64,000 nucleotides of DNA from Escherichia phage vB_EcoM_VR7. Position numbers and translations under genes: made by a program. The notes beneath the pieces were generated by a model that had not been told where the DNA came from, did no database searches, and saw nothing but the letters and a program-made list of their open reading frames with translations. Position 1 is the first letter of the stretch; every line of letters begins with the position of its first letter. Where the stretch lies: sequence record NC_014792.1; one strand, written 5' to 3'. Positions 385-21,501 of the stretch are shown here, in pieces.

Positions 385-990
385 GTGATTATTTCTAAAT
401 TTGTTGAAGTTCAAATACGAAATCATGCAAAGTGGTGGAGCGAATACTTAGGTAAACCTCTAACATACCATGATGTGATTTCTGTTCCAGTTGAACAAAT
501 GCCAGATAATAGTAATAAAAAGATTGAGTGTTCCTGTGATGAATGTGGGATACATTTTGAGCGAGGGATTCAGTTGCTTCGTCGCGTTGATAAACATTTA
601 TGTAAGGCATGTTCAAGAAAAGATATTGGACAAAAGAATGTTATTGCACAAGGCGGTGTGCCAAGACCATGGCAACGTGGTGAAAAACATCATAGCTGGA
701 AAGGCAATAAGCGTGAATTCTATTTGTACGCTCAACGTGTTCATGCATTGACAAGAGCAAAACATCTAAAGAATATTTGGTCAACATGGGAAAATGCAGA
801 TAAGATAGGAAAATGTGGGGAAGAAGGTGCATACCAACTTGACCATAAAGTTTCTATTGCGTATGGATTTTATAATCATATACCAGAGACTGTTATCGCT
901 TCGCTCAACAATTTAGAAATAGTCACTTGGGAATCTAATAGGTCCAAAGGAAAATCAAATAGTATTGACTTATGGGATATATTATCCTGA
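385..990 (+). CDS. HNH-family homing endonuclease (free-standing), N-terminal Cys4 zinc-finger-like motif
   Basis: C-terminal HNH-like motif (QLDHKVSIAYGF...NNLEIVTWESNRSKGKS); N-terminal CxxC...CxxC; GTG start with AAGGA SD ~7 nt upstream; sits between genes 18 and 19 where T4 has no gene. Confidence 0.6.
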   Translation: MIISKFVEVQIRNHAKWWSEYLGKPLTYHDVISVPVEQMPDNSNKKIECSCDECGIHFERGIQLLRRVDKHLCKACSRKDIGQKNVIAQGGVPRPWQRGEKHHSWKGNKREFYLYAQRVHALTRAKHLKNIWSTWENADKIGKCGEEGAYQLDHKVSIAYGFYNHIPETVIASLNNLEIVTWESNRSKGKSNSIDLWDILS

Positions 991-18482: not shown

Positions 18483-18511
18483 CCATTATACAGCCATAAA
18501 ATTAAAGCATT
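18483..18511 (-). promoter_or_regulatory. MotA-dependent middle promoter for uvsY
   Basis: Minus strand reads TGCTTTA, 12 nt, TATAAT. Confidence 0.65.
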
Positions 18512-18899
18512 AACCGTTTTGACTTAACTGAATCCTGATTTGTTCGAGGGTGTCAGGGTCATCAACAATGCTGAACTGAACCGTTACGATGATGGAGTTA
18601 TCATCATACATAGGGACAACCGCAACCTGTAGATTGCTTATCCTTGGTTCGAAGTTCCGCACCGCGGAGACGATGTTGCGTTTAATAGTATCTGTGATTA
18701 ATGGAGTGATATTCTCAAAAAGCTGATTACTTATATCACATCCAAATTCAGGCATAAAAGGCCTTGACCCTTTTCTTGTGGTGATTATTCCCAGAAGACT
18801 GTTCTTAACAGACCTTGCACCAGTTACTTTAGCAACGTCTTTATCCCAACTCATTGACAAGTCGGGAGGCACATCGCTATACATTTTGTTTATATTCAT
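18510..18899 (-). CDS. 25: Baseplate wedge subunit gp25
   Basis: NINK.YSD...KNSLLGIITTRKGSRPF.PEFGCD.S.QLFEN.TPL..DT..RNI.SAVRN.EPRI, near-identical to T4 gp25. Confidence 0.93.
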   Translation of the reverse strand: MNINKMYSDVPPDLSMSWDKDVAKVTGARSVKNSLLGIITTRKGSRPFMPEFGCDISNQLFENITPLITDTIKRNIVSAVRNFEPRISNLQVAVVPMYDDNSIIVTVQFSIVDDPDTLEQIRIQLSQNG

Positions 18900-19529
18900 T
18901 TACATAAACTTAAACTTAAAGAATTCTTTAAGCCCCTTAATTACATGGACAGAATGCGCTCCACACTCACAAGAGATAGGAATAGCCATTTGGACCTGTG
19001 GCTTGAGAAGTTCTTCCGTTAGTGCATTGATATCATCGAGGGTAATTGCATTGTACAGGTCCTCGATTTCGGCCTCATTTAAGTCATCAACAACGATGCG
19101 CTCGCCGCCTTCGGTGATAATATATTCAATGCAACAAGCAATCATTTTTCCTTTATCACCGTCTTCAAACAGTCCAGGATAACGGAATTTGATTTTAAAC
19201 GACCCAAAATCACGAATAACTTCAGACTCGTCCACGATGCTCGCACGGCTAATCGTTACCGGAATATCTTGTTCCTTTCCACACTCACATACCCATGTAT
19301 GCTCGACGTTGACAGCTCCGAGACTATTTGCCCAGAGATTAATAAGAAGCAGCTCGGCTTCCTGTTTGTTTAACCCTTTAGCATCAGTGCATTTATTAAG
19401 CAGTTCAATTATTGCAGGTTCCATACGCTTTTCTAATTTTGCCTGAAGCAAATCTTTATATTCGCGCAAGGTAAAAGCCCTACAATTTATAGTTTTATTT
19501 TTAATTTGGACAATAAATTCATAAGTCAT
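18900..19529 (-). CDS. 26: Baseplate hub subunit gp26
   Basis: Position and size (209 aa from MTYEF...); GGAG SD; a minus-strand TATAAATA lies ~18 nt upstream of this start, so the longer ORF-track start at 19562 is unlikely. Confidence 0.75.
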   Translation of the reverse strand: MTYEFIVQIKNKTINCRAFTLREYKDLLQAKLEKRMEPAIIELLNKCTDAKGLNKQEAELLLINLWANSLGAVNVEHTWVCECGKEQDIPVTISRASIVDESEVIRDFGSFKIKFRYPGLFEDGDKGKMIACCIEYIITEGGERIVVDDLNEAEIEDLYNAITLDDINALTEELLKPQVQMAIPISCECGAHSVHVIKGLKEFFKFKFM

Positions 19530-19543
19530 AATTTGCTCCTTTA

Positions 19544-19560
19544 CTGTATTTATAAATATC
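19544..19560. promoter_or_regulatory. Overlapping divergent late promoters for genes 26 (minus) and 51 (plus)
   Basis: Sequence TATTTATAAATA holds TATAAATA on both strands, offset by 4 nt. Confidence 0.65.
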
Positions 19561-19582
19561 AATAAAGATAAAAGGGGATTCT

Positions 19583-20335
19583 ATGGCCAATATCGTAAGA
19601 TGTGAAATGCCAGACGGAGTTCATCGTTTCAAACCGTTTACAGTCGCTGATTACCGTGATTTACTGCTTGTGCGAAACGACATGAACAACAAACCCGTCG
19701 AAGAACAAAAACAATTATTAGACGAACTGTTAGAAGATTATTTTGGAGAGTATCCGAAAGCATGGAGACCTTACATATTCCTGAAGGTATTCACTTCCTC
19801 TATCGGCAAGACGAAAGTCCCGGTAGCGTTCGAATGTCAAAAATGTAAAAAGACAAAGCAGACTTTGTTTAACATGAGCCAAGGTCCATTGATAAATCCA
19901 ACGATGGAAACCGCAGGGATAAAAATACAATTTAAGTTCCCTGAAGTGGAATATAAAGATAAGTCGGAGCTTGTTCTAAACACCATCCAGACTGTCGAAG
20001 ACTCGGAACAAAAGTACAATTGGGAAGACCTTCCTGAAGAAACGAAGATGCAGGTTATTGATGCCATTGATATAGAGAGCCTCGAAGAGCTCCTTAAGAA
20101 AATGCACTCGATTTATCTTCCATTTACATATGGTTGTTGCGAAAAGCACAAAACCGAATACACTGACCTGCTTGATGTCTTTAAGCTCATCCTTAACCCG
20201 GATGAAGTCTTTGTATTTTATCAAATTAACCACTTGCTGGTAAAGAATCAATATTCGCTGGATAGCATCATGCAAATGATTCCTATCGAACGAGGTATCG
20301 CTTTATCGTTAGTTGAGAAGGACTTGAAGAAATGA
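19583..20335 (+). CDS. 51: Baseplate hub assembly protein gp51
   Basis: 250 aa; divergent from 26 with its own late promoter; T4 gene order. Confidence 0.7.
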
Positions 20336-21501
20336 CAGCTAAATCTATGCAGCGCGAAGGCTTTCCTAATATCAGCATACGCCTTTATGAAGATTATGAT
20401 GCCTGGCTTGAACACCGTTTTGTAGAACTGGCTGCAACATTTACAACGTTAACCATGCGTGATTCCCTTTATGGAAGAAACGAGGGGCTGTTGCAATTCT
20501 ATGACACAAAGAACTTACATACAAAAATGAATGGCGAACAAATTATTCAGGTCTCCGTTAAGAATGCCAACTCAGACCGAACCCAATCCAGGATATATGG
20601 AAGCAAGCACTTTGCTGTTTCTGTGGATGCAAAGGGTGATAACATAATTACAATTCAACTGGCGCCCATTCACGAAATTGAAGACCTGAAATTTAGTCGT
20701 ATGTTTTACCCGAGTGTACAAGAAACATTAGTCGAAATGACCGGGGTAATTTATCAGGACCGACCATTACTTGCTCCTCCGATAAACGGCATAAACGTTT
20801 ATGCTCCTAATGTTCCATGGTGTGATTCGATGAACCAATATATGGAATTCATAAGGGAAGTAGGTCTTGCAGTTGAGTCTGATAAATTTGTATTTGTATG
20901 GGAAGATATCGATGGCATAAGTATTCAGGATTATGAATGGTTAACTACACAAGAGCCGATTAATTTTGTGGTGGGTGAACCTCGATTGGTTGGTCAGTTT
21001 GTACAAAACCTCGAGACTCCGTTAGCCTTCGATTTTGAATGGTTAACAAAGGCAAACCAACATACAAGAAAACCATATGAAAACGCAACCGTGTACGCAC
21101 ATTCATTCCTTGACAAGAATGCAACCAGAATAACTTTTGGGGAAGGACAAAACAGCATTCTGGTATCTCGTTCCGGGGGATATTCGGATTACACATACCG
21201 AAATGGTTTCGAGGAAGCACAACGATTAATAACCATGTCTCAATATGATGGTTACGCGCACTGCAAAACATACGGGAACTTTGAATTAACCCCGGGTGAT
21301 AAGATTAACTTCTATGACCCGAAGAACCAATTCAAATATGATTTTTACGTAGACGAAGTTATTCATGAAGTGAGTAACAATACATCAATTACAAACCTCT
21401 ATATGTTTACCAATGGTAAGCCTATCGAAGTTGAAGAACCACCGAAGGTTAAAAATGAACTTAAAACTGATTCTGCCGACGAAGAAAATACAGCTGGGTG
21501 A
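20332..21501 (+). CDS. 27: Baseplate hub subunit gp27
   Basis: 389 aa; position and size as T4 gp27. Confidence 0.8.

Follow-up and report, generated by a model that had tools for sequence, protein, structure and literature searches.

Overlapping promoters for the divergent transcription of the base plate gene cluster of phage T4 were reportedly mapped by experiment, in work published in Virology in 1989 by Scarlato, Storlazzi, Gargano and Cascino. A companion study by the same T4 group, dealing with genes 25, 26 and uvsY (Gruidl et al., Virology 1991), is cited in PMC2988022. The late-promoter box of T4 is an 8-bp sequence, TATAAATA, placed at positions -13 to -6 (PMC1524935). T4 late promoters have an A/T-rich stretch from box to start and are without a conserved -35 region, and caution is needed in that not every listed T4 late site is proven active in vivo (PMC2988020).

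As for the relatives of T4, the predictions of Nolan et al. (2006) include late promoters Pl:118620 (+) and Pl:118672 (-) of RB69 and both back-to-back promoters of the Aeh1 4/48 junction. The two RB69 predictions span the 12-mer TATTTATAAATA, which lies at 118641-118652 in that genome, between genes 26 and 51; a second pair of opposite-strand predictions is found in RB69 at 80613 (+) and 80684 (-). The record of Proteus phage Pm5461 (NC_028762) carries two promoters annotated on the same 12-mer, at 870-877 (-) and 874-881 (+) of locus L011. No promoter features are present in the 26/51 region of the T4 GenBank record, a keyword search of the literature for a bidirectional late promoter at 26/51 gave no relevant paper, and genes 26 and 51 are unmentioned in the DksA RNA-seq paper. 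Concerning bacteria, symmetric bidirectional promoters have been described by Warman, Grainger and colleagues, with starts 10, 18 or 23 bp apart and mutually exclusive binding (PMC12825309).

The locus analysed here lies in the genome of Escherichia phage vB_EcoM_VR7 (NC_014792.1), within a stretch of 64,000 nucleotides that is referred to below as the window. Its 12-bp palindrome is very probably a compact bidirectional late promoter for the divergent genes 26 and 51. Having the same 12-mer at a syntenic divergent junction, the element is read from its sequence as the orthologue of the overlapping T4 P26/P51 pair; since this orthologue has already been described or predicted in T4 and relatives, the feature is an already known and ordinary one, and current understanding is unchanged by the finding. 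The Pm5461 and RB69 pairs are the same element as well, but they are computational annotations and belong to other genera than the group formed by the window and phages VR25 and SP18. For the window, what is gained is a correct annotation, in which one 12-bp element would drive both baseplate-hub units and would give likely short-leader mRNA 5' ends.

Gene context and layout of the 26/51 spacer

The features of the junction are given below in the order of their coordinates, together with the window's DsbA homologue, which is needed further on.

18510-18899, minus strand: gp25 homologue, baseplate wedge subunit, directly downstream of gp26 on the same strand
18900-19529, minus strand: gp26 homologue of 209 aa (baseplate hub subunit), which opens the leftward unit; the A of its ATG is at 19529
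19536-19540, minus strand: gp26 Shine-Dalgarno sequence AGGAG, at +2 to +6 of the predicted mRNA; relatives keep CTCC on the plus strand
19541, minus strand: predicted gene 26 start, an A, 6 nt past the box according to the -13 to -6 rule
19554-19547, minus strand: TATAAATA box of the predicted leftward late promoter (gene 26-25 operon), exact consensus match
19551-19558, plus strand: TATAAATA box of the predicted rightward late promoter (gene 51 operon), predicted -13 to -6, exact consensus match
19564, plus strand: predicted gene 51 start, an A, 6 nt past the box according to the same rule
19572-19578, plus strand: gp51 Shine-Dalgarno sequence AAGGGGA, read from the sequence; relatives have GGAG/GAGG-type motifs at the same place
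19583-20335, plus strand: gp51 homologue of 250 aa (baseplate hub assembly catalyst), which opens the rightward unit; its ATG is at 19583
20332-21501, plus strand: gp27 homologue, overlapping the gp51 stop and followed on the same strand by 28-29-48-54
52660-52394, minus strand: DsbA homologue

The gene order around the site is that of T4, with uvsY, 25 and 26 on the minus strand and 51, 27, 28, 29, 48 and 54 on the plus strand. A 220-aa TTG-initiated ORF running up to 19562 was rejected as a mechanical extension of the gp26 ORF, whose real start is the ATG at 19529. Between the ATG of gene 26 and that of gene 51 there is a gap of 53 nt, which holds the palindrome and no further late box besides the palindrome's own pair; its order is ...CATAATTTGCTCCTTTACTG - TATTTATAAATA - TCAATAAAGATAAAAGGGGATTCT - ATG...

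Direct reading and a pattern search placed the 12-mer at 19547-19558, and its sequence is identical to its own reverse complement. The two TATAAATA boxes which it contains lie on opposite strands with an offset of 4 nt and have the central TATA (19551-19554) in common, whereas 19547-19550 are part of the leftward box alone and 19555-19558 of the rightward box alone. Because only the first four bases of the box are self-complementary, this offset is the tightest divergent overlap that keeps two perfect boxes, as reasoned from the sequence with a register check. The preliminary description had put the box on both strands, 4 nt apart, in a single 12-nt element flanked by the divergent baseplate genes 26 and 51, and these points were confirmed, the reading and the pattern search bearing on the boxes and the homologues (49.8% identity to T4 gp26, 52.6% to T4 gp51) on the genes. 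It had also termed the element quasi-palindromic, which was wrong, the palindrome being perfect, and had given its extent as 19540-19562, a range that does include the element but reaches beyond its actual limits.

In the whole window, TATAAATA occurs 19 times, vs. 4.8 +/- 2.2 times in dinucleotide-preserving shuffles (n = 100), none of which reached 19. The 12-mer occurs once, vs. an expectation of 0.01, and TATT directly precedes none of the 17 other boxes, which are one-directional. Two perfect boxes on the plus strand (1037-1044 and 1126-1133), 89 nt apart, lie upstream of one 163-aa ORF that starts at 1186; by its position, this ORF would be the homologue of tail tube gp19, and its two boxes may represent late promoters in tandem.

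On the gene 51 side, the predicted leader is AAAGATAAAAGGGGATTCT, of 19 nt, and positions -5 to -1 read TCAAT; on the gene 26 side, it is AAGGAGCAAATT, of 12 nt, with CAGTA at -5 to -1. Both mRNAs would thus have leaders holding little beyond a Shine-Dalgarno sequence, and their predicted starts are 23 bp apart by the geometry of the boxes. From box to ATG, the distance is 24 nt for gp51 and 17 nt for gp26; this is similar to the 18-30 nt by which other late boxes in the window precede structural genes, e.g. the gp24, gp34 and gp36 homologues. The 26/51 pair of T4 has the same 12-mer, flanking genes and orientations, but its box-to-start-codon distances are 21 nt (gp26) and 17 nt (gp51); as a consequence of this different spacing, the predicted leader of the window is shorter for gene 26 and longer for gene 51.

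Over this stretch, the nearest relative, Escherichia phage vB_EcoM_VR25 (Gaprivervirus, Tevenvirinae), shares 98.9% identity with the window, and Shigella phage SP18 about 95%. As to the late-transcription machinery, a gp33 homologue, 100% identical to that of VR25, is encoded in the window itself (52410-52120, minus strand), and the annotation of the near-identical VR25 genome includes gp55, gp45 and gp44/62, of which gp55 and gp45 lie outside the window. With their consensus sequence, their placement before virion genes, their A/T-rich flank and this machinery, both boxes have the attributes of predicted T4-type (gp55-dependent) late promoters, and we infer the start sites and the use of both promoters in this phage.

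Two further observations were made on these genomes. On the minus strand, the homologues of dsbA (52660-52394) and gene 33 (52410-52120) share 17 nt, an overlap that agrees with the conserved arrangement of dsbA and 33 for translational coupling described in PMC2988020. The VR25 annotation (L080, 8280-16180, with the window's syntenic stretch about 1 kb lower) lists a tandem pair of gp24 paralogues (capsid vertex proteins I and II), an ORF with collagen repeats and, on the strand opposite to hoc, a Hoc-like ORF.

Conservation of the palindrome among T4-like phages

The junction was examined in a sample made up of named phages of 13 genera and 62 IMG/VR loci found with a gp51 alignment. The divergent 26/51 arrangement was present at 67 loci, corresponding to 33 distinct spacers, and 27 of these 33 contain the exact 12-mer TATTTATAAATA. 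Its carriers include phages of Acinetobacter, Proteus, Serratia, Klebsiella, Salmonella and Enterobacter, with gp51 identities going down to 40%, and in T4 the same 12-mer separates genes 26 and 51, which have the same orientations. When the spacers were aligned on the 12-mer, the information content was 2.00 bits per position within it vs. 0.47 and 0.45 bits in the two 30-nt flanks. In these flanks, only the Shine-Dalgarno sequences and the A at each predicted +1 are strongly conserved, this A being found in 28 of 31 distinct sequences on the gene 51 side and in 27 of 31 on the gene 26 side. The entire spacer, 45 to 53 nt in length, therefore follows the layout Shine-Dalgarno-leader-box/box-leader-Shine-Dalgarno. 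In the relatives, the A/T fraction of the 6 nt beside the 12-mer is 0.70 on the left and 0.80 on the right, and there is no conserved -35 region. At the level of the alignment, the conservation of the 12-mer shows that both of its halves are constrained, which is a statement on constraint and not on the strength with which each half fires. In this survey, the exact palindrome proved to be one of the best conserved non-coding features of T4-like genomes.

In Pseudotevenvirus and Slopekvirus, the hub genes are rearranged as 54-51-26-25 on one strand, and no late box was found upstream of gene 51 in these co-oriented genomes (L014-L016, L069-L076 and L079). They provide a natural negative control which supports the promoter reading. 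In their 28-nt 54/51 gap, directly before gene 51, a G+C hairpin leads into a T run (GGGGCGAAAGCCCCTTTT).

Among lineages with a different late box, the Aeromonas-type phages 44RR, phage 25 and IME13 carry a 10-bp perfect palindrome, TATTTAAATA, consisting of two TTTAAATA boxes with an offset of 2. At the Aeh1 4/48 junction (L082, 805-818), a 14-bp perfect palindrome, TATTTAGCTAAATA, is made of two abutting CTAAATA boxes between divergent late genes. The latter junction is like that of the window in its opposite-strand late boxes, its perfect palindrome, its short spacer and its divergent late genes, but it is another junction, it uses the CTAAATA box and its boxes abut instead of overlapping. 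These lineages keep the back-to-back layout, rebuilding it with their own box. The Krischviruses RB49 and JSE have, in a spacer of 70 nt, TATTTTATAAATA with an unclear leftward box, and the boxes of contig L051 are in swapped order (TATAAATATTTATA); from these two variants, it follows that the 4-nt overlap is common but not obligatory.

Predicted occupancy and choice of direction

The existence of two late promoters for genes 26 and 51, as put forward in the preliminary description, is supported by their position, by the conservation across genera, by the co-oriented control and by the annotations or predictions available for relatives. Late in infection, TATAAATA would be read by the core of the E. 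coli RNA polymerase, which carries the phage protein gp55 in the manner of a sigma factor, has gp33 as its co-activator and is held by the gp45 sliding clamp, and the shared TATA would let the polymerase dock either way. Docking in the rightward direction would lead to a start at about 19564 (A) and to the transcription of 51-27-28-29-48-54, and docking in the leftward direction to a start at about 19541 (A) and to that of 26-25, probably continuing into uvsY.

The unwound DNA of the gp55 open complex extends from -12 to +2, with gp45 beside gp33 at the upstream end (PMC7892883). The footprint becomes 13 bp longer on clamp activation, cross-links of gp33 are found at -39 and at -36/-35, and a T4 late promoter fires only with a gp45 clamp that was loaded at a break in the non-transcribed strand (PMC2988020). 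Transposed to the present site, the predicted bubbles (19552-19565 and 19553-19540) would abut with 2 bp in common, and the upstream duplex of each complex, bound by gp33 and gp45 to about -40, would cover the start region of the opposite promoter. With starts 23 bp apart and coinciding footprints, only one orientation would be occupied at once, and the orientation of the arriving gp45 clamp would most likely set which direction fires; both the mutual exclusion and the choice by the clamp are extrapolated from data on other promoters, e.g. P23.

It had been proposed earlier that the two promoters may compete for the same late-transcription complex. By geometry, it would indeed be the same DNA that is contested, but under the polarity rule of the nick the two promoters would be served by oppositely oriented gp45 clamps, so that the word 'same' does not extend to the complex. 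A competition between the two directions is sterically plausible, and whether it becomes measurable would depend on occupancy; at symmetric bidirectional promoters of E. coli, interference was measurable only when one direction was strongly activated (PMC12825309).

The maximal overlap might also act as a clamp-orientation toggle, the two complexes sharing about 65 bp and the direction of transcription reporting which strand carried the nick or primer end. We regard this as doubtful, and such a toggle is unlikely to exceed a consequence of the known rules. If it were true, each baseplate operon would be expressed mainly from one type of daughter duplex, the one from that of the leading strand and the other from that of the lagging strand, and the output of 26-25 vs. 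that of 51-27-28-29-48-54 would be balanced, or made less noisy, by mutual exclusion.

The element resembles the class of Warman et al. in that an overlapping -10-type element would be read on both strands, and the predicted 23-bp separation of its starts is one of those found in that class. However, the promoters of Warman et al. depend on sigma70, have -35 elements, are pseudo-symmetrical and show low basal activity, whereas the element of the window is perfectly symmetrical, has the 8-bp gp55 consensus box without a -35 and would depend on a sliding clamp for its activation. It would function in the manner of this class without belonging to it, as it is not of the sigma70 type. The site would be a handy natural substrate for following polymerase competition and the choice of clamp orientation at a clamp-activated bidirectional promoter.

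Alternative readings and sigma70-like sites

Three other explanations of the palindrome were weighed. According to the first, only one box works, most likely that of gene 51, the match on the opposite strand being a by-product of symmetry and gene 26 being expressed from elsewhere. A near-match on the opposite strand is indeed cheap, as the box starts with the palindromic TATA; a sigma70-like site at 19606-19578 (-) could in principle feed gene 26, and the RB49 record annotates -35 and -10 signals inside gene 51 on the gene-26 strand. Yet the TATT that completes the second box is invariant in 27 of the 33 diverged spacers and is absent from the 17 one-directional boxes of the window, the A at +1 on the gene 26 side is kept in 27 of the 31 sequences, and the 53-nt spacer offers no other late box. 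Moreover, the sigma70-like site is limited to the clade of the window (5 of 62 regions), with a count not above chance. On this evidence, a single working box seems improbable.

A second explanation, to which we give just as little credit, is that the palindrome has been kept mainly as the site of a dimeric DNA-binding protein, e.g. DsbA or another phage regulator, with a secondary role as a promoter. The dyad symmetry is perfect, a DsbA homologue is encoded in the window, and T4 DsbA is reported to bind, with low affinity, A/T-rich sites that overlap two late promoters (PMC2988020). Two opposed consensus boxes are nevertheless sufficient to yield the symmetry, so that an extra factor is not needed; unlike a fixed operator, the palindrome shifts in step with the late box of each lineage (TATTTAAATA in the Aeromonas-type phages and TATTTAGCTAAATA at the other junction), and the element is gone where the genes are co-oriented. 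Finally, the element could be an A/T-rich palindrome that arose by chance, or a structural one (cruciform or hairpin) that does not function as a promoter. This reading agrees with the A/T-rich spacer but is effectively refuted by the conservation data, the 12-mer being expected 0.01 times per window and yet conserved across genera, and the spacer folding as ssDNA at -2.8 kcal/mol (z = -0.21), no better than shuffles.

Concerning sigma70, the scan found no promoter using the 12-mer and no -35 partner for it. The sigma70-like site of the window (19606-19578, minus strand) reads TTCACA-17-TAGAAT, matches 10 of 12 positions, overlaps the gp51 start codon and points to gene 26; transcription from it would read across the palindrome, and the region count is 4 vs. 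5.1 expected. A different sigma70-like sequence, TTGCCA-17-(C/T)AAAAT, is found at about +158 in gene 51, on the minus strand, in T4 (L001), RB69 (L081) and Acinetobacter phages (L009 and L056), so that T4, Mosigvirus and Lazarusvirus share its place and its strand, that of gene 26. It was not detected by the sigma70 scan inside gene 51 of the window. The -35/-10 signals of the RB49 record (AJ489481) are located at L017 962-988, also inside gene 51 and on the gene-26 strand. This recurrent sigma70-like site internal to gene 51 may be an early or middle entry into the 26-25-uvsY unit.
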